Assembly: GCA_048213135.1 (NCBI GenBank)
Contig: PS015196.1
Coordinates: 41,224 to 83,659, forward strand
DNA: 42,436 nucleotides
Reading direction: 5' to 3'
Source: Reclinomonas americana ATCC 50394
Taxonomy: Eukaryota
The notes beneath the pieces are model-generated. The model saw nothing but the letters and a program-made list of their open reading frames with translations. It was not told where the DNA came from and did not search any database. The position numbers and the translations under genes were made by a program. Below, one piece after another: positions 1 to 40,455 of this stretch. The stretch's first letter is position 1; the number at the start of each line of letters is the position of its first letter.

Positions 1-2826
1 GCTGCAGTTGTGAGTGTGATGGAAAGCGGTCGATCTGATACTGCGCACCGCAGATCGAGGAGCTGCAGAACGCGTATACCGAGTCGCGACGGCATGCGGC
101 AGCGGAACAGGAGCGATTGCAGTTGCAGGTGCTGGCGCTCAATTGGAGCTCGTAACTGACTGGAGGCCTCAACGTGACTTGTTGTTGTGCAGATTTCACA
201 ACTGCAACACGCAGTGCGGGAGCACCGAGATGCGCTGCTGGCCATGCAATCAATCTATGACGAAACGCGCGTGACACATCGGAAGGAGGTGGGTCATTCG
301 TGGGCTGACTTGCCGGGCAGGCTCGTCGACTCACATTATATTGTGTGTCGTGCCACAGCTGCAGCGACTGGAGCAAGTGATGGATGGGCAGCGACACTCG
401 TTTGAGGCAAAGGTCCGACATACCGCACACACTGTGTGGGGGAAGAAGAGAAGGAGCTGGGGATGGAGGGCAGAGGGTGAACTTGTATGTGCTTGCTGTT
501 CTGCCAGACCGAGTTTGTCTGCATCCTCGTCCATCCGGCCACAAGACTGAGAGAGAGAGAGAGGGAGAGAGAAAGGGGCGGAAGCCGATGATGGAGCTCG
601 TCAGATAGTGGTTTCTTACAACGCGTCACACAGCTCGCATCGATCGAGGCTTGGCTGGAGGCACCAAGGCATCGTGAGAAATCTTCACGGCCCTCCACGG
701 GAACCAGCGCGGATGAAGGCAGTGACTTGCCGCCGCAGCTGAGCTTACCGGCCCCTTCATCGTCGGCTCCGTTGGACGAGGTTCGTTGGAGTCTTTTTGT
801 TGCACCNNNNNNNNNNNNNNNNNNNNNNNNNNNNNNNNNNNNNNNNNNNNNNNNNNNNNNNNNNNNNNNNNNNNNNNNNNNNNNNNNNNNNNNNNNNNNN
901 NNNNNNNNNNNNNNNNNNNNNNNNNNNNNNNNNNNNNNNNNNNNNNNNNNNNNNNNNNNNNNTTCCGCTGGAGTAGGGCCCTGACCACGTACAGTGGAGA
1001 TGTCAACGCTGCGGTCAACCGGTGACGGATGCGACGACAGAGGAGTGTCGCTATCACCCTGTTGCGTTCACAGGCCCTGCTCGTTCACGCGGCGCCATCT
1101 TGCACGCATGCTCACTGCCCTCGCAGGGAGTGAGTGCTTCTCGGTTATCGCTTTCACGCCATCATCGTACTGACACGTGTGCGCACTCTCCTCGATGTGA
1201 TCTCGCTTCTGTTCGGTGCAGCAAGTTGCGTCGGCGGGTAGCATAGTGCTGTCTTGTCTGTGTGATTTACTCAAGTAGTATTATTTCATGCCTGTGCGCA
1301 GCAAGTTGAGTTACTCGTCTCGTGAGCAGCAATATGTTTGTGTAACTTGTTGCTGATATCCGATGCACCCCAACATCGTGCGTGGAGCAGGCGGTGAGTG
1401 CATGCGTGCTGTTCCTCTTTAGATGTGCCTGCTCACCGTTCGGTTCCGCGCGCAGGTGGTGCGTGAACTGTTGCCACTGTGTGGTCTTGTTACTGCGTTT
1501 GTTTTTTGGTTGTTTGTTCACTGTGGCGACCCTGCTCGCTTCTGCATGGATGGCTGCAATCGTAGCGGGTGAGTGAATATGTGTCCGTGTTTGTGTCACG
1601 ATGAGAAAGACTGCGTTGCTCACGTGATGCGCAGCCGGTGAGTTCTTGTGTAGGCGCCATTGAATCTCGTTGTACCACTACTGACGGGCACTCCTTGGTA
1701 TCACGCGATTCCCAACCACAGCCGGTGAGCTGATGAGATAAGAGTGCATTAATGTTCTCTGGCTGCCATTGCTTGCTCACTGACTTTCTCTTTCACATTG
1801 TGGCAGTCGGTGAGTGATTTCGAGCTGCGAAACCCTTGATTCGTTCTCACATTGAATGTTTGGCTGGCGCTCGACTACGATGACATACAGGAGGTACGTG
1901 CCTGTCGTAGTCGTATCCTTGGTCGCAGCGTCACGTGTCAGCTCACCGTTCAATCGTGTGTCTGTCTGTTCCTTTTCTGCCGATTCGGTGCAGATGGTTC
2001 GTTCCCTAATCCTTGCTCACACTGTGTGTCTTTCGCTACTGACCGGCAACGGGCACAGGGGGTCTGTTACTGGGGGATACGATGCGGGCATGCTACTATT
2101 TGTCTGTGCTCTGTCGCATGTGTGTCGTCAAACATTCCTCTTGGGCTCTGCGATAGTGGCACAGGAGTAGTTCCTTTGTCCCCTTGCTTTGTTCGCTGTG
2201 ATGTGTGGGTTCTGCATCGTGTTTCTCTTTGTGCCTCACAGATTGACTTCTCGCATGTTCGGACGGCAGGGAGTTGCGTTGTTGTGGCTTGGTGCGCTGT
2301 TTATCTTGTCTACTCACTCACACGTACATTTATCGTATGCCTGACAGACCGTTGCGTGGTGTAGCGTATTTCCCAGCTGCTCATCCTGTTTACTCACTCA
2401 CACATGGCCACACGGCGGCGTTGGAACACCGACAGGCGGTACGTCTGCTTGTTCTGTCTCTGTTCTCCCGCACCCATTATCTCACTCGACCCGATCCACC
2501 ACTACGTGTTTGCTGTGATGTGAGCAGGAGGTATGTAATATTGCAAGTATGGTGTGCTGGGAGTTTTCGATTCTCATTTCCTTTCCCCTTCGCAGTGGGT
2601 ACGTTTTCGCCGGCAAACAACATCGTTGTTGTAGTACAACTCATGTTGTTGTTCGTGCTCTTCTACTTCCTCGCTGGCATATCACAGACGGTGAGTTCGT
2701 GCAGTGTTCATCGTGCTGCGGCGCACCGGCTTACACTCACTGTGGCACACTGCACAGTGGACGTGTTGCAATCAATCAGTGGGACCGCAGGCTGTCGGAT
2801 GTGTTGTCGGCAAACACGTGCGGTGA
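1..2826 (+). CDS. Coiled-coil protein with C-terminal CHORD-like zinc-binding domain; 5' part outside window; contains 18 one-codon microexons
   Basis: Hand-spliced phase-0 exons 54-128, 193-288, 359-412 (IEELQNAY...LQRLEQVMDGQRHSFEAK, helical/coiled-coil-like), 634-780, 995-1060 (WRCQRCGQPVTDATTEECRYHP), 18 x 3-nt exons from 1127 to 2690, and last exon 2758-2826 (WTCCNQSVGPQAVGCVVGKHVR*). The pattern CxxC..CxYHPG..WxCC..GCx4H resembles CHORD/Btk-type fingers. An N gap at 807-962 could hide further exons. Confidence 0.85.
1127..2690 (+). other. Array of 18 three-nucleotide (single-codon) microexons
   Basis: YAG|NNN|GT at 1127 GGA, 1222 CAA, 1302 CAA, 1391 GCG, 1456 GTG, 1566 CGG, 1635 CCG, 1722 CCG, 1807 TCG, 1891 GAG, 1994 ATG, 2059 GGG, 2270 GGA, 2348 ACC, 2436 GCG, 2528 GAG, 2596 TGG, 2688 ACG. 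Donors are GTGAGT/GTGAGC/GTGCGT/GTACGT/GTATGT/GTTCGT/GTCTGT/GTTGCGT/GTTGAGT. Introns are 62-107 nt (one is 208 nt), often with CTCAC/CTGAC-like branch sites. Confidence 0.9.
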
Positions 2827-2902
2827 GGCCCCAGCGGAATGCATGGAATCACGAAATGTACGACCTGCAGGGAATGTGTGCTACGATGGAAATTACTACA
2901 AA

Positions 2903-3272
2903 TCAAGTTTGATCTTGCGCTAGTCCTATTACGGCCACAGCGGCCGCCACAAAGCCGAGGCCGCCCAGCATCAGCCATCGGGCCCGACTTGGCGCCTGAC
3001 GCCACTCGCCAAACAAAATACTCCACACGTTGGCTGTTAGTATCACCGAGCTCATGTACACCGGCCACGCGACAACCTCGCCCAGTGCCGTGTACTTGGA
3101 GGCGATACCAAAGAGCAAATATCCTGTGCACGCACACAAAGAGAACGTAAGTAATCTGCGGGGCTACGACGAGTGCGAGTGAGCGAGAGAATGCAGGCGA
3201 CTTCTGTCGCTTGGAACAGGTGTCTCGCAAGGTGCATCTCTCATTCTCCCTCTATCCTACCGCACTTTCTCC

Positions 3273-3305
<33 letters not shown>

Positions 3306-5333
3306 CCACTCACCTGAAAACCACAACAGCCCCATGAACAAGCTCAACAACCACATGCGGAGCACGGTGTAGTCGCAGCAGCTGGACGTTTGCTCTTTCG
3401 GTCCCAGCAGCGGTCTCACTGGCGACCAACTGTACGCCAATTTGACGTCCCCTTTCGGTTCACGCGCACACTGGCAGCACCACAGATTCAGCTGCGCACG
3501 TCGACGAAGCAGGTGTGAGCGATTCGCATAGCAACAACTTACAACCGGGGAATTTGGGAGCCCAAACCTTGCGGTCGGGGTACTGTCGCACTTGCAGCCG
3601 GTACATGATAAGCGTGTACACCGTGTTGACAAAGTAGCCGCCGATGCCAAGAGATAGTGCCCACACAACCAGAGCCGACCGATCTTCGCTCAGATTTTCC
3701 TCAGTCTCCGCGTAGTCAATAAGCGGCTGTCCAATCTGCACAGCGCCGATAAGTGTACACACATGAAAAATGCGAGACGATAGCGGCAAAGAGCGTCGGC
3801 AGCGCACCAGCACAGAGACAACAATGGCAATCGAGCATACACCGGCTACGCAGCACCACATGATGCCTTTGATGTAGTCACGCATCGGCCGGCGGGCGAT
3901 TGGCGAGGCCACGCGGGCTGCGACAGGGACCATGACGTGCTGCGCGACACCGTCCCATATGAGACCGTGGACACGAGGCACGACACGATTGAGCACTCAC
4001 CGCCGACCCTTCATCGGTGAAATCCTCTGCCGACGAGGAACCATAGTTGACACTAATGTCGCGTTGGAGCCGCAAGCCACTTGCCGACCGCTGCGTTCCC
4101 TGCGACGACTCAGATCGCTGGGAGGCAGCAGGTGACGGGTCTACGTGATGCCACACGGCACCAGCCGCGTCCTTGTAGTGGCCCGCGAGAGCACACAATA
4201 CGACCCCGAAGAGCACAATGCCAAGAGAGAGTAACGTCAGGATGCCTGCGAATTGGGTGGAAGGGGGGATGAAGGGCACGACAGCAAGATCAGACGCAGC
4301 GGCGCACGAAACGCGATGTTTTCTGTCTCTCTCTCTCTCTCCCTCCCTCAGCGCAACCACCACCCACCTCTCAGCTTCAGCATCTCATCGCGGTGATTCA
4401 TCAGCAACGCGGCGAGCGAGCCGCCCGTTCCGAGAATGCCAAGCACCAACGAGAACGACATACTCATGCCGATCAAGGCGACAGCCCAGCCAAAGACGAC
4501 GCTGCCGAGGCCCCACACCGCTCCAAAGACCTGCACCATGTATGCAAAGAGAGAGAGAGAGAGAGAGAGAAGAGGGAAAGAGACAGAGAGAGGGAAAGAG
4601 ACAGAGAAAGAGACAGAGAGAGATAGAGAGACAGAGAGAGAACGACAGAGAGAGAGAGCGACAGAGAGAGAGAGAGCGTGACAGAGAGAGAGAGAGAGAG
4701 AGAGCGCGACAGAGAGAGAGAGAGCGCGACAGAGAGAGAGAGAGAGACAGAGAGAGAGAGAGATGAGGAAGAGAGAATGAGAGAGAGAGATAAGANNNNN
4801 NNNNNNNNNNNNNNNNNNNNNNNNNNNNNNNNNNNNNNNNNNNNNNNNNNNNNNNNNNNNNNNNNNNNNNNNNNNNNNNNNNNNNNNNNNNNNNNNNNNN
4901 NNNNNNNNNNNNNNNNNNNNNNNNNNNNNNNNNNNNNNNNNNNNNNNNNNNNNNNNNNNNNNNNNNNNNNNNNNNNNNNNNNNNNNNNNNNNNNNNNNNN
5001 NNNNNNNNNNNNNNNNNNNNNNNNNNNNNNNNNNNNNNNNNNNNNNNNNNNNNNNNNNNNNNNNNNNNNNNNNNNNNNNNNNNNNNNNNNNNNNNNNNNN
5101 NNNNNNNNNNNNNNNNNNNNNNNNNNNNNNNNNNNNNNNNNNNNNNNNNNNNNNNNNNNNNNNNNNNNNNNNNNNNNNNNNNNNNNNNNNNNNNNNNNNN
5201 NNNNNNNNNNNNNNNNNNNNNNNNNNNNNNNNNNNNNNNNNNNNNNNNNNNNNNNNNNNNNNNNNNNNNNNNNNNNNNNNNNNNNNNNNNNNNNNNNNNN
5301 NNNNNNNNNCCCTCCCTCCCTCCCTCCCTCCTC

Positions 5334-6365: not shown

Positions 6366-8083
6366 ATGTTGGTGAGCGCAGTGCACGCTGCGCATTTGTG
6401 GAGGAGAGGTGGTGTGCTTTTCGTCTTCGTCGGCTAAAACTCGTGCACCGCAGAATCGTTTCCGCGCCCTGGCCACGGGCCGACTGCAGTGGTCGCGTGT
6501 GCCCCAGCTGACGCATCAGGTGAGCGCACACACACACACTGTTAACATCTGCCTCGGCATGGATCCGAACTTACGAGTGCACACTGCATTGCAGATGCCC
6601 GGCGGGTGGGTGCCCGTGTCATCCAGTATTCGCACGTTTGCCGGTCGTACCACCACCGNNNNNNNNNNNNNNNNNNNNNNNNNNNNNNNNNNNNNNNNNN
6701 NNNNNNNNNNNNNNNNNNNNNNNNNNNNNNNNNNNNNNNNNNNNNNNNNNNNNNNNNNNNNNNNNNNNNNNNNNNNNNNNNNNNNNNNNNNNNNNNNNNN
6801 NNNNNNNNNNNNNNNNNNNNNNNNNNNNNNNNNNNNNNNNNNNNNNNNNNNNNNNNNNNCGTACCACCACCTCCGCCACCACCACCACCACCGACACCGA
6901 CGACAAGACCACAGGCGGCAAAGTGAAGGAGGTGGCCTCCAATGTGTACGACAAGGTCAAGGAGTGGGCCTCAGGCACCGCCGAGAAGGCCAAGCAGGGA
7001 GCGGAAGACACGTGGCAGACGACCAAGGCCGGTGCCAAGGATGTGGCCGACGAGATGCGTACCGGTGCCCGGGAGGTGTACAGCAGCACCACCGGTCCGT
7101 CGCAGGCGTACCGTGACGCCAACCTGCAGGCGGACAAGACGTACAGTGATCTGGCCGACCAACTGCGCCAGTCACAGGAGGCAGCTGGCCGCACGCCGGC
7201 GACAGGCACCGAGACCACGGCCCGTACGCACCCGTACACGTATGCCGACGACACGGCGGTGAGCTCGAGCAGCAGTGCCGAGACTGCTGGCGAACGACTG
7301 CGTGCCGCCGGCTCCAATATCTTGGAGGCCGCAGATGAAACCACTACGCAGTACGCCATGCGCGATCCCTCCTCGTCCGCCGCGCGCAGCTACGCCACAC
7401 GGCGTGCGGTCGACGACGTGGAGGACTTTGGCGACAAGGCGCGCGAAGCCGCCGAGTCGGCCTATTTCCGCGTAAAGGACACGGCCAATCGCGCCACCGA
7501 CAAGGCCAAGGACGTGGCGGGCACGGTGGCAGACAAGACGGTCGACGCCGCCGAGACCGCGTACGACAAAGCCAAGGATGTGGCGGGCGCAGTGGCCGAC
7601 AAGGCCGAGACCGCGTACGACAAGGCCAAGGACGTGGCGGGCACGGTGGCTCACAAGACGGCCGACGCCGCCGAGTCTGTGTACGACACGGCCAAGGACG
7701 TGGCTGGCGCTGTGGTGGACACGGCGAAGCAGGCCTTTGGCGCCGCCAAGGTGGTGGCGCACAAGGTGGAAAATGTGGCCGAGGCGGTGGTCGACAAGGC
7801 CGTCATGGCCGGCACCGTGGTGAAGGACACGGTGATTGGAGCGACGGAGGCGGCCAAGGAAAGCGTGCGCAATGTCAGCTCCACCGGTCAGCGCAGCAAG
7901 GCGGCACAGGAGTCGCAGGACAAGGTCGCAGCGTGGCGAGACGCCGTCAAGCGCGGCAGTCAGAAGATGGAACTGGAGGGCGGGCCCGTTGACATTCCCG
8001 TGCAGTACGAGGCAGCGGAGCAGCAGCAGCAGCAGCAGCAGCGGCTGAAGGAGCAGAAGGGGGAGGCAAAGGCGAGGAAGTGA
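6366..8083 (+). CDS. LEA group 3-like hydrophilin with probable mitochondrial presequence
   Basis: Exons 6366-6371 (ML), 6454-6519 and 6595-8083. The N-terminus MLNRFRALATGRLQWSRVPQLTHQMPGGWVPVSSSIRTFAG is Arg-rich with no acidic residues. The body has 11/22-aa repeats (AYDKAKDVAGTVADKTVDAAET), is A/K/D/T/E-rich, and has poly-Q near the end. Confidence 0.8.
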
Positions 8084-22458: not shown

Positions 22459-25202
22459 ATGTCGCGAGAAGACGAGACCGTAATCACTACTGAAGAGCTG
22501 GAAGCCGGCGGCTTTGACGGCGACGACTTTGAGTTGGAGGGCGCTGAAGGCGACGGATACGCCGACGGAAGCGAGTTGCCGAATGAGGGCACCTCTGGAG
22601 CCTCTGACTCTGCAGCAGCTGGTGCTGCAGCAGTGCCGCGCTTTGGCCCACTGTCGGCGAAGAAGCTGAAGGAGGTGAGAAGGCGTATTGAGAGAGAGAG
22701 AGAGATTGTGACTTTTTTGGGCTCTCCTTTGAGGCGCTTTCAGCTGTGCTGCACCTTGGCGCACACTTTGCGCATACGTTGCACGCGCTTGCACTCACTT
22801 AACGCACACTTTCACACACTTTACGCACACTTTTCACTCGTACTCTTGTTACTTTCCACTCACATCGTGCACGCCTTCTGCACACGCTCTCTGTCTCTGC
22901 ACTCTTGCATTGTCGCCCTCAGCGCGACGCAGTTTCCGGGGCGTCTTTGGTGGTGTTGGTGTTGTGCGTGTGTGTGTCTGTGCATGTGAATGTGCACTTG
23001 CACTTTTTTCACACTTTTTTCCTCGCCCGTCCCCTCTGACTCCGTCTTTGTTTGTGTGCCTGTGTAGCTGTGAGTGTGATGATTGCTGCGAATGCAGTTT
23101 CTTTCAGTCACTCTCCCTCAGTCACACCCTCAGTCACACATCCTCGTCACACTCGCAGTCACACTCTCAGTCGCACCCTCTCAGTCGCATCCTCTCAGTC
23201 GCACTCCCAATCACACTCTCAGTCACACTCTCAGTCACACTCTCAGTCACACTCTCAGTCGCACCCCCTGTCACACTCTTAGTCGCACCCTCAGTCACTC
23301 CCTCAGTCGCACCCTCAGTCGCACCATCAGTCACCCACTCAGTCACACTCTCAGTCGCACTCAGTCACACCTGCAGTCTCATTCTCAATCACACTCTCAG
23401 TCGCACCCTCAGTCACACTCCCTCAGTCACACTCTCAGTCGCACCCTTTGTCGCACCTGCAGTCGCACCCTCAGTCGCACCTGCAGTCTCATTCTCAGTC
23501 GCACCCTCAGTCGCACTCTCAGTCGCACCCTCAGTCGCACCCGCAGTCACACTCTCAGTCGCACCCTGCCACACTCTCAGTCTCCTACTCAGTCACACTC
23601 TCAGTCACACTCAGTCACACCCTCCCTCTCCCTCTCACTCACCGCTCTCTTCCCCCTCACAGGCCGTGAAGAAGGAGTACCGCAAAATCCCTGTTCCCCC
23701 ACACCGATTCACGCCGCTGAAGAAGAGTTGGGCGCGCTTGTACCAGCCACTGGCAGAGCACATGAAGCTGCAAGTGCGCATGAACCTCAAGTCGCGCAGC
23801 GTGGAGATTCGAGTTGCGTTGATGTGAGGAGTGAGGGAGAAGGATCGATTGCTCTCTTCTCCTTCTGCTGGGTCTGTCTCTTCTTTTTTTGTCGACTCTT
23901 CTCAGTGACTCTCTCTCTCTCTCAAGTATTGCCAATCTTTGTGCATAATTCTCTTCCCTTCCTCACATCGTGTCCTTCTCTTCCTCCGCTCCTTTCATCT
24001 CTATTTCACCCCAGGTCTTCTTCAGTGTGGTGCTTATCTCGTTCGTGTCGTTGTGTTTTCTTTCCCATTCCCATTCCTCCACGCCTCTTCTCTGCCCTCC
24101 CCCTCATTCCTTATCCATTCTCCTCACCATTCCCCTTCTCCACGGTTCCCCTTCTCACATTCCTCTTCTCCACGCTTCTCTTCTCCACGCGTCTTTTCCA
24201 CGCTTTGCTTTCTCCACGCTTCGCCTTCTCCACGCTTCGCCGTCTCCCCGCTTCTCTTCTCCACGCTTCTCTTCTCCACACTCTGCCTTCTCCACGCTTC
24301 GCCTTCTGCAGGCGTCTCTTCTCGACGCTTCGCCTTCTCCACGCTTCGCCTTCTCCACGCTTCGCCTTCTCCACGCTTTGCCTTCTCCACGCTTTGCCTT
24401 CTCCACGCTTCGCCTTCTCCACACTTCGCCTTCTCCACACTCTGCCTTCTCCACGCTTCGCCTTCTCCACGCTTCTCTTCTCCACGCTTCTCTTCTCCAC
24501 TCTTAGCCTTCTTCACCATTCCCCAACTCCACGCCTTGCCTTCTCCACGCTCTCCCTTCCCCACCCTTTCCCATTTCTCACCCTTCTCTGTTTACCTTCC
24601 CTTCTCCGCCCTTCCGTTCCCTCCCTTTCACCTTCCCCATCCTCAGACGTGCGCCGAAACGGAGGACCCCGGCGCCATCCAAAAAGGCGCCGACTTTATC
24701 GCCGCCTTCCTCATGGGCTTCGAAATCGAGGATGCCGTGGCACTGCTGCGTATGGACGACCTGTACGTCGACACGTTCGAGATCCACGACGTGAAGACAC
24801 TGAAGGGCGACCACTTGTCGCGTGCCATTGGCCGCATCGCCGGCAAGGACGGCAAGACCAAGTTCACGATTGAGAACTCGACAAGAACACGCATTGTGCT
24901 GGCCGACACCAAGATTCACGTGCTGGGCTCGTACTCTAATGTTGCGTGTCGGGATACAGGATGTATTGTGCGAGGTTTCTTCGACTTTCTCCTGTTGCAC
25001 TCTCGCTCTCTCTACCTCAGTGTCTCTTCCTCTCGTTATCGTCGCTCTCTATCTTGGTGACAGCATCTTCTCTTTCTCATGCCGACCGCGGTCTCGTATG
25101 TTCCTCTTGCGTATCGCCTTGCATTTCGATCCTGTATTTCGGTGGCGCACAGCGGTGGAAGGTACCGTCTATTACAGGAAGTGTGTCTTCTGTGATGAGC
25201 AA

Positions 25203-25243
<41 letters not shown>

Positions 25244-26003
25244 CCTCTCTCTTTCCCACTCTCTCATCGTGTCTCTCCTCATCCTACTGAAGCCAGAAGG
25301 CATCATCGTGATTGCGCGTCTTCAGAGATGAACATCTGTCTCTCCCTCCCTCCTTCACTCGCGCCTCTCGTGCTGTCTCTCCCTCTCCTCCTCCGCTTCC
25401 ACCTCTCGTACTTTGTTGTCTCTCTTCATGCCAGTGAAAGCTGAAGTCACCGTCGTGATTGTGCGTCTTCAGAAACGATCATTTTTTCTCACTCTTTTCA
25501 GCTCCATTTGTACTCTCATATCCTTCTCTCGTCATTCCACTGAAACTTGAGGGCATCATCTTGTACAGGGATTTCCTTTCTGACGAGCCTCTCTTCGTCT
25601 TCTTCTTGTTCTTCTCTCTCACTCTTTGTGACCCACTCTTTCATCTCGAACTCTTAAATCTCTCCTCGATTCGCTGAATGTTGAAGGCATCGTCGATGCC
25701 AGTAATTGTGTGTCTCCAGAGACTCTCTCTTTGCAAACTGTCTTGTACTCTTGTGTCTCTCATCACTCTACTGAGCCGTCTTGTCCTTTCCGCTGCCTTC
25801 CTTCCCCTTCCCTCTTCCCCCTTCCCCTCATCACCCTTTTCCCTTCTTCCCCTCTTCCCCCTTCCCCTCACACCCCCCTTCCCCTCTTTTAGATCAAGAT
25901 CGCCCGCGACGCCGTCGTCTCCCTCATCCTCGGCTCCCCGGCCAACAAAATCTTCGCCAAGCTGCGCACCGTCATGGGACGCATGGCCGATCGGAGGTTT
26001 TAA
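22459..26003 (+). CDS. PNO1: Pre-rRNA processing KH-domain protein PNO1/DIM2, 4 exons, 256 aa
   Basis: Exons 22459-22674, 23663-23812, 24647-24940 and 25893-26003, all phase 0. Motifs [79 protein letters not shown]. Confidence 0.97.
23105..23620 (+). repeat. Intronic minisatellite, about 12-nt unit CAGTCRCACYCT
   Basis: Tandem cagtcacactct/cagtcgcaccct in PNO1 intron 1. Confidence 0.9.
24165..24550 (+). repeat. Intronic minisatellite, about 16-nt unit TTCTCCACGCTTCGCC
   Basis: Tandem copies in PNO1 intron 2. Confidence 0.9.
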
Positions 26004-36052: not shown

Positions 36053-37600
36053 GAGGAGATGGAGGGGGAGAGACGGAGAGCGATAGACAAACAGTCAAGA
36101 GTCAGCGAAAATCACACGACCACCAACTCGTGCAGCAACAGGTCCACAAACCCTTGAACCACGAGCGCATTGGTGGCTGGCACCGCCGGCTGTCCATTGA
36201 TGCTGCAGGCACACTTTTCTGTCAGTGCTCTCGTCAGGATGCCACATACGTAAGCGGTGCCCCATACGCAACACAATGCACACGGTGAAGGCACCGGGAT
36301 TGGTGCCAGTGACCTGCACAAAGAAGAAGCTCAGCACACCGTTCTCCATTATCGATAAAGCCATCTCGGGAAAAACGCAACAGGAGTCGAGATCTGCTGC
36401 GCGGAAGTGACGGTCACCGCGCCAAACGTGACCGAGTTAACCGCGGCACTCGTGCACGCAGAGTTTTGCGCCACCGCCGTGAACGTGGGAGTCTTGTCGA
36501 GACCGAAGCCGGTGAAGGTAATGACGGTGGCGGAGGCGGGTACAATCGTCAGCGGAGTCGCGTTTGTCACACCCTGTGCAACCACGATGAGCGCGTCATC
36601 GAATTTCTTCTCGCAACTGGCAACAACAAGACCTGCACAGTGAGATTGCCACCCGTCACGGCAGCGTACGAATTGCCACCCGTTGGCCTGCATGCATGCG
36701 TATGAGAATGGCTATGATGAAAACATGTGGCTCGACGTTGACACGCAACTGAAGGCACACGATAAACAGGTTCGGCGTCGTGGTCGTCGCAGACACCACG
36801 AGCTGGGTCGGCGACGGTGAAGCGCGGTTCGTGATGGTGATGCTGGCGTCCTGCGCATTGCCGGTGCATGTGCCGCCGGTGGCAATCACCTTGACCAGAT
36901 CGGTGGCTGCGAGACTGATCGCGAAGAGTGTTCAGCATCATCGTGTGTTGGTATGAAACAAGATGGACAATATGCACTCACCCGTCGCCATTGATGGTAA
37001 AGGCGGTCATGCCGACCGGCACCTGAGTCGGCGTGATTGACTGTGTGCCTGTGGAGGGAAACAAAATGTGAGCTTTGTCAAGCAGACTCCACGTGACAGC
37101 AGCCTGGTCTCACCTTGCACAAACAAGTCGCCCGACACATTCACAGCGGTGCCCATGCCACCATATCTGCAGAGGATAAGAAACTAAGCATTTGTGTCGA
37201 GAACGACACAAGCACAGGATACTGCTGAGGCGCACGCAACTGGATGCACATCACATACTGTCCTCCAGTGTTACCAGTGCCATTCACAGTCACCGCGAAT
37301 GCAATGCTGGTGGTACCAGTCGCCGTCACGGCGCCGACGGTGATCTGTGAAGCATCGTACGCAGGTGATGAGAACATGATCATCATGTCTGGATCTAGTG
37401 TCACCTTTTCTTTTTCTTCTTCTTTCTCTCTCTGTCTCTCTCCAAACCTTCTCTTCTCCCTCCCACTCTTTCCTCGTTGATTCTCGCCAATCGCACTTGG
37501 ATTTTTCTCTGCTCTCACCTCTCTTCTTCTTCTTGTTGTTCTTCGTCTTCTTGTTCTTCTCCTTCTTCTTCTTCTTCCTTCTTCTTCTTCTTGTTGTTGT

Positions 37601-37632
<32 letters not shown>

Positions 37633-40455
37633 TCTCCCTCTCTCCTTCCTCGCCGCTTGTCGCCAATCGCATTATTTCTTTTTCTCTGCTCTCTTTTCTC
37701 TTCTCCACTCCCTTCCTCTCCCTCTCCCTCTCCTGTCCCTCTCCTCCATACCGTGCCCGGAGTGGTACCCGTGGCGCAGTTTGGCGTCGGTGAGGCCGGC
37801 AAAACGGCGATCTTGTCCGCGCCCGACAGCGCAAAACCATTGACCGTCACCGTGGTGGCGGTGGCCGGCGGAATGGAGGTCGGCGAGATGCCACTCGTGC
37901 CCTGCACGGTGAACTGGCCAGTTTGCAGCGGGATATACGTCCCCATGGCGGCGCTCGACGGGCTGCATGGCGCGTGAGATTTGGAGAGAGGAAACCTCAC
38001 TTCCACAGTCGGCAAACCTGATGCAGGCCTGGAAGGTGCCCGGCGGAGTGCTCACGTTCAGCGAAGCGGTAATCACGGTGGCAGAGCTGGCGGCCACAGT
38101 GCCGACAGTGATGCTGGCGACTTGCGCGTCGCTGCACGAACCGGCCGCAGTGACAATCTTGACGCCAGTGGTGGCTGCGGAGGAGAATCAGAAAAGAGGT
38201 CAAAAATATCTCAGTTGACTCTCTTACAAATACCAGTCAATCCAACTCCTGTAATGGACAGCACAACGCCGTTGGAGATCGAGAGCACTTGCGGAGTCAG
38301 CGACGAACCGCCTGCACATCATTACCGACGCATGAGATAATCTTCCCCACAAATCACCCTCCCACGCACGCACACACGTATGCAAACCTTGCACAGTGAG
38401 CACGGCGGAGCTGGCCACCGGCACAAACGTCGGCAGCAGCTGACCGCGCAGCTCGCCGGCCGCCGCCGCCGCGGTCGGAATGTCAACGTACCACTGACCG
38501 GCCAGGAGTTCGTTGAGCACCTGGTTCGAGGTCACGGTGACATTCTGCGTCGGCACGGTGCCCGAGGTGCTGGCCGGCACGTTGGTGAGAGTGGCCACCA
38601 ACGTGCCCGTGGCGCCAGGCACAGCCGGACCGTGAATCTCCACTGCCGTCGGGTTGCCCGACAGACCAGCAAAGGTGACCGACACGGAGATGGAGGTGTT
38701 GCCGGGGGCGACCACCACGGTGGCGGTGCCGGAGGCGTTGTTGACCTGGCCAGCCTGAGCGCCGGTGAGGACGCCGCCGGCCGTCACCGCGGGCGCCGCT
38801 TGCCCGCGGATCTCGCCATTGGTGTTGTTCACCGTCTCCACATCCACGTACCACATGCTGCTCTGCAGATCGGCCAACTGCGCCGCCGACACGGTGAAAG
38901 TCTGCGGTCCCAGCGTGCCACTGGTGTTGGCCGTCGGCACCGTCATCGCGAACAGCGCGGGGCCGGTGGCGCCCGCCGCCGCAGGTCCATGAATGTGCGC
39001 GCCCGTAATGTTGGAGCTGAGAGCAGTGTACTGTACCGTCACCGAGATGCTGGTGGGCGACACGACGGTGATGGTCGCGGAGCCTGCCGCGGCACCCGGG
39101 TTGGTGGGCGCCGGCACGTTGGCCGCCGATGTCAGCGCCATGTAGTAGTTCGACGTGCCGCTGTAGGCAATGCACAGAATGTACGTGTTCGGCGCGCTAG
39201 CCTGAATAAACGGCGTCACCGAGGTCGGCGGCGACGACACGTCAGCCGTGATGGAGATGCCATTCGGCTGTGCATCGGTCGCGCAGTTGCCGGCAGTCGG
39301 CAGCATCTTGAAGGAGGCGGAGGCTATAGAAGGGAATAGGGTTGAGAGGAAGAGGAGGTGAGGAAGAAAAAGGGAGAATTGTGCCGCACCGGAGAGACCA
39401 AAGCCGTTGATGGCCACTGCGGATTTGATTGTGGCCGGGATGGCGGTGGAGCCCACGGAGGTGGTGCCTGCAAGCAGAGAAGGGAATGAGCGGAGGATGA
39501 CTGCGAAAACACGGAGAAGTGAGAGAGTGCATACCCTGCACAGCAATCGGCAAGGCGAGGCCGCTGAAGAAGGCGGTGGCATTGGCGAACCTGTGAAAAT
39601 GGAAACAGTGAGCAAGGAGGAGAAAAAGGGGCGAGGGGGAAAAGGAGAAGGAGGAGAATGGGAAGGGGGAGAAGGGAAGAAAAATGGCTACAATCTTCGC
39701 GCACACGCAACTTGATGCACACAGTGTACGTGCCGGGGGTGGCGGTAGCCGTGGCGACAAACACCGACTGCGTGCCATCGACGCTGGCGGTGATGGTGTT
39801 GCCGACGGTGAAGACGGTGGCGGTGGCTGAGCAGTCGGTGCCCGACACGACCTTGATGGTGTCGGTGGACGAGAAACCGTAACCGGCCAGCGTCACCGAG
39901 GTCGGAATCGTGGCCACCACAAACGCGGGCGACGGTGCGGCAGTGACGGCTTGTCCGGACAGAGTGCCGACGGCGGCGTAGGCGGTGGTGGTCGCGGCGT
40001 CTGCGAACCTATTGTGGAGGATTGTGAGACACAATATGGGCAAGTTGAAGCGGAGAGTTACGACGCAACTTGTAGCACAGCGTGTACTGCGCGCCCGTGG
40101 TGAGAGTGATGGGGAAGCTCACGGCGGTGTTGGCGGTGACCACAGCGGGTGTACCGACAGTGACGCCGCCCACCATACCGCCGTTCACGCAATCGCCGTT
40201 GAAGGTGACCACCTTGACCGCGTCGGTGGCCAGCAGGCCGAAGCCGTTGATAGTCACTGTGAAGAGGGAAAGGGATGAGATCGGGGAAGGGGAAAGGGGG
40301 AAAGGGGGAAAGGGGGAAAGGGGGAAAGGGGGAAAGGGGGGAGAGGGGAAAGGGGGTAAGGGGGATAGGGACAGGGAAAGGCGGGAGAGACATGAGAGCT
40401 GAGCTCACGAGAACGAATGAAAACGGGTTAAGAAGAGAGAGAGAGAGAGAGAGAG

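Follow-up and report, generated by a model that had tools for sequence, protein, structure and literature searches.

The window analysed here is a 42,436-base stretch of a eukaryotic draft scaffold (Reclinomonas americana ATCC 50394, contig PS015196.1; ∼55% G+C, 10 N gaps), and near its start lies a gene whose 3′ end is split into very small pieces. Joined by their coordinates, the final 62 codons of this gene read as 20 exons (189 nucleotides (nt), including the stop codon) that are separated by 19 short introns. Exactly 18 sites of the form YAG-NNN-GT (Y, pyrimidine; N, any base), each enclosing a putative exon of a single codon, are found between a 66-nt exon, here called exon A (995–1060), and a 69-nt last exon (2758–2826). 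The upstream exons (54–780) encode a coiled-coil-like sequence, for which Pfam gives no significant match and no PH domain, and the 5′ end of the gene is located beyond the window. The features of the gene are the following.

54–780 (+): upstream part of the same gene, with exons 54–128, 193–288, 359–412 and 634–780 (75, 96, 54 and 147 nt, phase 0), open frames putatively joined by eye at GT...CAG
781–994 (+): intron before exon A, with donor GTTCGT at 781 and acceptor CAG ending at 994; it contains an N gap at 807–962 and its true length is uncertain
995–1060 (+): exon A (P0001), 66 nt, with C-x2-C-x11-C-x2-H and then Pro, the first four zinc ligands
1061–2757 (+): the array, in which 18 three-base exons are set between 19 GT-AG introns
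1127–1129 (+): one-codon exon 1, Gly, which completes H-P-G; CAG before it and GTGAGT after it
1222–1224 (+): one-codon exon 2, same codon as exon 3; donor GTTGCG
1302–1304 (+): one-codon exon 3, same codon as exon 2; donor GTTGAG
1391–1393 (+): one-codon exon 4
1456–1458 (+): one-codon exon 5
1566–1568 (+): one-codon exon 6, the sole one preceded by TAG and not CAG
1635–1637 (+): one-codon exon 7, same codon as exon 8
1722–1724 (+): one-codon exon 8, same codon as exon 7
1807–1809 (+): one-codon exon 9
1891–1893 (+): one-codon exon 10
1994–1996 (+): one-codon exon 11
2059–2061 (+): one-codon exon 12; donor GTCTGT, the weakest-looking of the array
2161–2171 (+): candidate dead one-codon exon in the middle of intron 13, CAG plus three bases with no GT after them, dividing the intron into 102 + 3 + 103 nt
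2270–2272 (+): one-codon exon 13; donor GTTGCG
2348–2350 (+): one-codon exon 14; donor GTTGCG
2436–2438 (+): one-codon exon 15
2528–2530 (+): one-codon exon 16
2596–2598 (+): one-codon exon 17, whose codon also opens the last exon
2688–2690 (+): one-codon exon 18, whose codon also stands second in the last exon
2758–2826 (+): last exon (P0003) with the stop codon at 2824–2826, 69 nt; it starts with W-T-C-C and contains C-C-x10-C-x4-H, the last four zinc ligands

All 19 array introns are in phase 0, and each of them combines a GT donor within a donor-like hexamer with a YAG acceptor. The acceptor is CAG in 18 introns and TAG in one (ahead of exon 6), and the donors comprise GTGAG[TC] (seven introns), GTTGCG (four), GTACGT (three) and one each of GTTGAG, GTGCGT, GTTCGT, GTCTGT and GTATGT. 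The introns measure 62–107 nt, with a median of ∼82 nt (n = 19), except for intron 13, which at 208 nt is about twice the usual length; five introns are just 62–66 nt long. Retention of intron 1 or intron 8 would leave the frame open, and the other three introns of a length divisible by three contain in-frame stops. The span 963–4795 is free of N. An earlier note on this DNA had placed the zinc ligands in two ordinary flanking exons, with only the segment between HP and WTCC fragmented, and both the coordinates and the joined reading agree with that description. The note had also called all exons of the array symmetric and non-stop, which they are: 18 exons of 3 nt in phase 0, none of them a stop codon, although zero stops in 18 codons is uninformative, as it is expected by chance alone with a probability of ∼0.42. 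Any subset of these exons can indeed be skipped without a frameshift, but the 2^18 combinations that the note derived from this property are arithmetic and not an observation.

The regularity of the array was assessed with a scan for YAG-N(k)-donor sites (k from 0 to 30, ten donor hexamers), in which positions 1061–2757 were compared with the rest of the window on both strands. Within the array, k = 3 gives 18 sites with strong donors and each other value of k gives 0–1, with acceptor-to-donor spacings of 0, 1, 2, 4, 5 and 6 nt all missing. Elsewhere in the window k = 3 yields 7 sites, which is comparable with the other values of k (2–12). The same scan detected no other one-codon-exon array within the window, so a search for further microexon arrays, which had been suggested as a check, came back empty at this scale. 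When the region was shuffled 1000 times with dinucleotide composition preserved, YAG-NNN-GT sites had a mean of 4.2 (maximum 11) and strong-donor sites a mean of 0.24 (maximum 4), compared with 18 observed in both cases. A branch-like motif, CT[CG]A[CT], is present within the last 55 nt of 17 of the 19 introns, 13–53 nt upstream of the acceptors, as opposed to 4 of the 19 reverse complements and a shuffle mean of 3.9 (maximum 10; n = 1000); this motif was picked by eye from the introns of this window, and the control counts for more than the motif name. By these sequence criteria the observation is confirmed as real, strongly non-random and frame-constrained. The strict 3-nt spacing is the strongest single argument that the pieces would stay in the translated messenger RNA (mRNA).

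The donors of the array belong to a wider pattern in the window, which also contains the gene for PNO1 (a KH-domain protein of pre-ribosomal RNA processing) at 23663–26003 (+), with exons 23663–23812, 24644–24940 and 25893–26003; the genes defined by homology have GT-AG introns. A PNO1 exon has 81% identity to a jakobid (Seculamonas) sequence and 79% to fungal ones. The heptamer GTTGCGT is found at 31 places on the two strands of the window (∼5 are expected for a 7-mer, an about sixfold excess). It forms the donors of both homology-defined PNO1 introns (23813 and 24941, +) and also bounds three introns of a gene at 20.9–21.3 kb (20985, 21085 and 21182, +). Further examples are located at 36272, 36381 and 36749 (−). 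Of the 44 GTTGCG sites that lie outside the array, 37 are preceded by A or T and 2 by G. Within the array, exon ends before GTTGCG or GTTGAG are non-G in all five instances, and those before the other donors are G in 13 of 14; overall, 13 of the 18 one-codon exons have a codon with a final G. From its sequence context, GTTGCGT is judged to be a genuine second donor class of this genome, and a second or unusual U1 small nuclear RNA may lie behind it. No description of a GTTGCG donor class was found in the open-access literature and preprints.

The gene at 20930–21290 (+) has exons of 35 and 36 nt and introns of ∼59–65 nt, all with GTTGCGT donors, which indicates that very short exons and short introns are normal in this genome. 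Its stop-to-stop read-through gave no Pfam match. Just downstream of it, at 21583–21728 (+), there is a degenerate 7-nt minisatellite with the consensus GAGGGTT, in 18 copies with TTTAGGG-like units, that amounts to an interstitial telomere-like repeat. Short introns, of 64 and 70 nt, are also present upstream in the array gene itself, and the array introns are similar in length to these and to those of the short-exon gene. Long introns are tolerated too, as the PNO1 introns are ∼830 and ∼950 nt in length, and since they carry CT-rich tandem repeats of 12, 16 and 78 nt, long repeat-filled introns coexist with 60-nt ones.

When the exons are joined, the C-terminus of the protein reads C-x2-C-x11-C-x2-H-x21-CC-x10-C-x4-H, with the stop two codons after the final His, and the eight Cys and His residues follow the CHORD order C, C, C, H, C, C, C, H. 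One-codon exon 1 adds a Gly after H-P. The resulting H-P-G, together with W-x-C-C and G-C-x2-G-x-H, belongs to the hallmarks of the CHORD and Btk families. The stop codon at 2824–2826 sits inside a donor-like GTGAGG, and a CAG is located 47 nt downstream (2822–2870, +). The gene may thus have a further tiny intron and a longer C-terminus beyond this point; all eight zinc ligands are upstream of it.

Profile searches were performed with the two 22-residue halves of the module separately and with the 89-residue read-through stretch. CHORD is not listed for either half even at E values up to 10, nor for the read-through, and the exon A half gave nothing relevant in Pfam. The best Pfam match is BTK (PF00779), on the last exon only, with E = 0.096 and 13.1 bits (the cut-off is 24); the exon aligns to profile positions 12–25 of 30, which correspond to the W-x-C-C ... 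G-C part. The Btk motif follows a PH domain. The module described here differs from it in having four further ligands and no PH domain in the upstream exons present. A profile check that the earlier note had recommended thus returned, for the halves, no significant match to CHORD or Btk.

Structural data on CHORD allow a closer comparison. In CHORD-II of Rar1, one zinc ion is bound by Cys159, Cys164, Cys178 and His218 and the other by His181, Cys196, Cys197 and Cys213, and all eight ligands are called totally conserved (PMC2935968). By residue numbering, the spacing in CHORD-II is C-x4-C-x13-C-x2-H-x14-CC-x15-C-x4-H. Relative to CHORD (PF04968; Rar1, Chp1, melusin), three of the seven spacings are identical in the array gene (C-x2-H, C-C and C-x4-H), whereas four differ (x2 versus x4, x11 versus x13, x21 versus x14 and x10 versus x15, array gene first). 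The distance from H to CC with all exons included had been put at 21 residues, which is what the joined reading gives, and the canonical distance of about 14 that was quoted for comparison is right for Rar1 CHORD-II, in which His181 to Cys196 leaves 14 (PMC2935968). The fragmented segment would correspond to the exposed H-to-CC loop of CHORD. In Rar1, this loop bears at its tip an invariant His, His188, which precedes an acidic residue and touches the ADP bound to Hsp90 (PMC2935968). CHORDs occur as tandem pairs in association with a CS domain; the part of the gene inside the window shows one zinc module and no CS domain. The designation CHORD-like therefore stands as far as the ligands are concerned (all eight in CHORD order, with three of seven spacings) and does not extend to the profiles or to the loop His, and we describe the module as CHORD/Btk-like by its ligand pattern only, not as a member of either family.

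The queries used to search for relatives of the module were unbroken read-through stretches, as the exons encode only 22 residues. A word-indexed protein search returned one candidate, which did not score, and the Atlas search returned no usable match. A PDB search found nothing for the last exon, and exon A obtained only generic C-x2-C matches with E values no better than 0.09. A metagenome scan found 521 stretches that fit the pattern, of which none was confirmed. An exhaustive HMMER search gave two matches, both to internally repetitive proteins; they look spurious and were rejected.

Taken together, these features make it fairly probable, in our judgement, that the region really consists of 19 successive spliceosomal introns, each self-contained, which leave 18 one-codon exons in the C-terminal eight-ligand zinc module of a coiled-coil protein, within an intron-rich genome of short exons. 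Because each intron is complete and short, recognition across the intron would be the natural mode, so that introns of 62–107 nt would be recognized by intron definition and removed singly, each leaving one codon behind. With only 3 nt between an acceptor and the donor that follows, and with the branch-like motif 13–53 nt upstream of the acceptor, neighbouring introns are probably not engaged at once, and introns would therefore probably be removed stepwise. The encoded residues would be dictated largely by the splice-site grammar, and the agreement of the codon pattern with this grammar suggests that the loop is under weak sequence constraint. Occasional skipping of exons, with some heterogeneity in loop length, would be an expected by-product: because 18 inclusions are needed, mixed products would arise even at small error rates, and at 98% inclusion per exon only ∼70% of the mRNAs would contain all 18. 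The same facts are fitted by a loop that was lengthened through the local gain of introns together with codons and whose introns are spliced constitutively, one by one, which is a plainer alternative to the functional ideas of the earlier note.

Several results weigh against this interpretation. Neither half of the module is significant in family searches, and the searches described above identified no orthologue or paralogue of it. None of the 21 residues in the loop is a His, in contrast to the invariant loop His of CHORD (PMC2935968). The array introns also show no detectable mutual similarity by blastn-short, Tandem Repeats Finder (TRF) or an adjacency test, and because of this the case for duplication comes down to a codon signal that is weak and partly post hoc.

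In a blastn-short comparison, the introns share only 8–16-nt matches, the best being a 13-nt block common to introns 14 and 15, which is found at the same offset in both and is accompanied by a shared donor heptamer. Adjacent introns are no more alike than non-adjacent ones (p = 0.12), TRF detected no tandem array in the region beyond a short (GTTT)n, and the introns have no copy elsewhere in the window. Recent tandem duplication and an active introner family are both unsupported, because the introns are not copies of one another and none is copied elsewhere in the window. Among the codons, neighbours resemble each other more than in permuted orders (p = 0.029), which reflects a weak and partly post hoc signal; exons 2 and 3 have the same codon, as do exons 7 and 8, and the codons of exons 17 and 18 recur in that order at the start of the last exon. 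The chain could have arisen by old, repeated local gain or duplication of a codon-plus-intron unit in an exposed, insertion-tolerant loop, with subsequent divergence of the introns beyond recognition, and the loop would thereby have grown from a roughly canonical 14 residues to 21. Origin by repeated codon-plus-intron gain is the route that we favour, tentatively and with a lesser chance of being right than wrong. In the middle of intron 13, the bases at 2161–2171 may be a lost nineteenth one-codon exon. If units can be gained in this way and lost through their donors, and if skipping occurs at the RNA level as well, the loop would have an evolvable length dial and zinc modules could vary at single-residue resolution. 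We offer this as a speculative extension that is unlikely to hold; it would be the protist counterpart of the micro-exon variation of schistosomes, placed inside a folded domain.

Among the competing explanations is the idea of the earlier note that the array serves as a combinatorial diversifier, in which regulated or stochastic skipping of any subset of exons would have been selected for a variety of loop lengths and sequences. As each of the 18 exons is 3 nt long, in phase 0 and non-stop, every subset stays in frame. The segment also corresponds to the loop of CHORD that, in the Rar1 complex, touches the nucleotide bound by Hsp90 with its tip and so forms an interaction surface (PMC2935968); schistosome micro-exon genes use symmetric exons of 3–81 bp in a similar manner (PMC10526429). 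The short, complete introns of the array, however, favour intron definition. Exon skipping is the rarer outcome under intron definition. The residues moreover follow the splice-site grammar with no visible protein pattern, and the product in which all exons are skipped, H-x3-CC, is probably too short for a zinc site. Selection for diversity is in our view unlikely.

A kinetic role, likewise raised in the earlier note, would assign the function to the splicing process, with 19 stepwise reactions at the extreme 3′ end slowing or filtering mRNA maturation as a delay or quality gate. This would agree with the probable inability of adjacent introns to be processed at once, given the 3-nt exons and the branch-like motifs 13–53 nt upstream, and with a report that more of the introns flanking plant micro-exons are detained ones, whose splicing follows polyadenylation (PMC8831610). 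Any long intron would serve the purpose, however, in a genome that tolerates introns of ∼830 and ∼950 nt, and a timer has no need for a rule that preserves the frame in units of 3 nt, which makes such a gate very unlikely.

The 1.7 kb region could also be effectively one intron with internal recursive or decoy sites, through which exon A is joined straight to the last exon. Recursive splicing via internal sites is known for long fly introns (PMC6110457), and the frame is kept when all 18 exons are skipped. Known recursive sites, however, have an AG-GT spacing of 0, which occurs nowhere in the array, compared with 18 occurrences of spacing 3, and no GT is regenerated at the junction after joining to the upstream exon. 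A 3-nt rule would have no purpose if the pieces were discarded, and the resulting H-x3-CC is far below the 14 residues of CHORD. This explanation has a very slight chance at most.

In some host genes, each intron yields one small RNA and the exons are short, so the introns themselves could be the product, whether as small nucleolar RNAs, mirtrons or other intron-derived RNAs, with the tiny exons incidental. Intron 3 (1225–1301) and intron 18 (2599–2687) fold better than their shuffles (z ∼ −2.9 each), which the other 17 introns do not; intron 3 is among the two that lack a branch-like motif. The mean folding z of the 19 introns is nevertheless −0.26, with no general excess of structure, no Rfam match was obtained in the window at gathering thresholds, and five introns are only 62–66 nt long. 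The exact 3-nt rule and the zinc-ligand frame point instead to a coding constraint, and we give this explanation hardly any credence. A chance pattern, assembly artefact or decaying pseudogene, which the 10 N gaps of the draft scaffold and the candidate dead exon in intron 13 might suggest, is the least credible of all, as there is no N across 963–4795 and no tandem-repeat or collapsed-repeat signature, the counts of sites and motifs are far above those in shuffles, and all 19 donors, all 19 acceptors and 17 branch-like motifs are intact (two introns have no motif).

Other genes of the window are located around and downstream of the array. A convergent gene for a membrane protein occupies 2920–4400 (−), with its 3′ end ∼100 nt from the stop codon of the array gene and a weak SLAC1/TehA-like Pfam match (E = 0.0013) that is below the cut-off. 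At 7160–8083 (+), an open frame that contains tandem repeats of 54 and 120 nt encodes an Ala/Lys/Asp-rich repeat protein resembling late embryogenesis abundant proteins and has no Pfam match. A long uninterrupted frame at 38224–39687 (−) contains two CHRD domains (Pfam E = 1.5e-37), and its best relatives are metagenomic or bacterial, with identities of 40% or less. Such a gene is unusual for a eukaryotic scaffold and might have been transferred. For the PNO1 and CHRD proteins, no near-identical protein was present in the searched collections. The window also contains a fragment of a fatty-acid desaturase gene, and no tRNAs were found in it.

If the array is spliced as its signals imply, it would greatly exceed in length any other run of minimal in-frame exons of which we found a record, and a spliceosome that operates by intron definition would have to cope with an acceptor and a donor 3 nt apart 18 times running. 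The gene would then lend itself to studies of the order in which introns are removed, of how small an exon can be and of the marking of exon junctions, of which there would be 19 in 54 nt. It would also bear on the gain of introns, since every intron gained here may have lengthened a protein loop by one residue. Gene predictors and aligners of RNA sequencing reads almost certainly misread such a case.

Exons of this size are known from other systems, although as isolated cases. Single 3-nt exons are described in Drosophila homothorax (PMC7392893), human MAP4K5 (PMC8632122) and RPS24 (PMC12207440), the last of which has three micro-exons of 3, 18 and 22 bp (PMC12207440), and single 1-nt exons in Arabidopsis (PMC4674806) and in Fusarium CYP621A (PMC12940212). 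Because such single exons are documented in several eukaryotes, spliceosomes can include exons of 1–3 nt. The array differs from them in that 18 exons follow one another in a chain, and no chain of many consecutive one-codon exons was found in open-access papers and preprints. In RAR1, the archetypal CHORD gene of plants, exon 2 is a single 3-bp exon in Arabidopsis and peanut (PMC8430224). One possibility is that a one-codon exon in this loop is ancient and was expanded here, for which the RAR1 exon serves as a lead only.

The ratchet points of Drosophila resemble the array in that internal acceptor-donor sites cut a long stretch into short steps (PMC6110457). They are of zero length and leave nothing behind, whereas the array leaves 3 nt each time and a spacing of 0 is never seen in it. 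The micro-exon genes of schistosomes are the other system with which the array can be compared. They are reported to contain runs of short, symmetric, frame-preserving exons, down to 3 bp, and skipping of these exons yields protein variants (PMC10526429, PMC10399815). Runs of symmetric micro-exons are common to both, the array being made of 18 consecutive 3-nt exons in phase 0. However, the schistosome exons range from 3 to 81 bp and their introns reach up to 5 kb (PMC10526429), in contrast to the uniform 3-nt exons and the 62–208-nt introns of the array, and in the schistosome genes the micro-exons account for the greater part of the coding sequence, the products being secreted proteins, whereas the chain described here does not extend beyond one loop of a zinc module. 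In summary, the array, as judged by its splice signals, is an extreme form of the micro-exons and micro-exon genes described in other eukaryotes.

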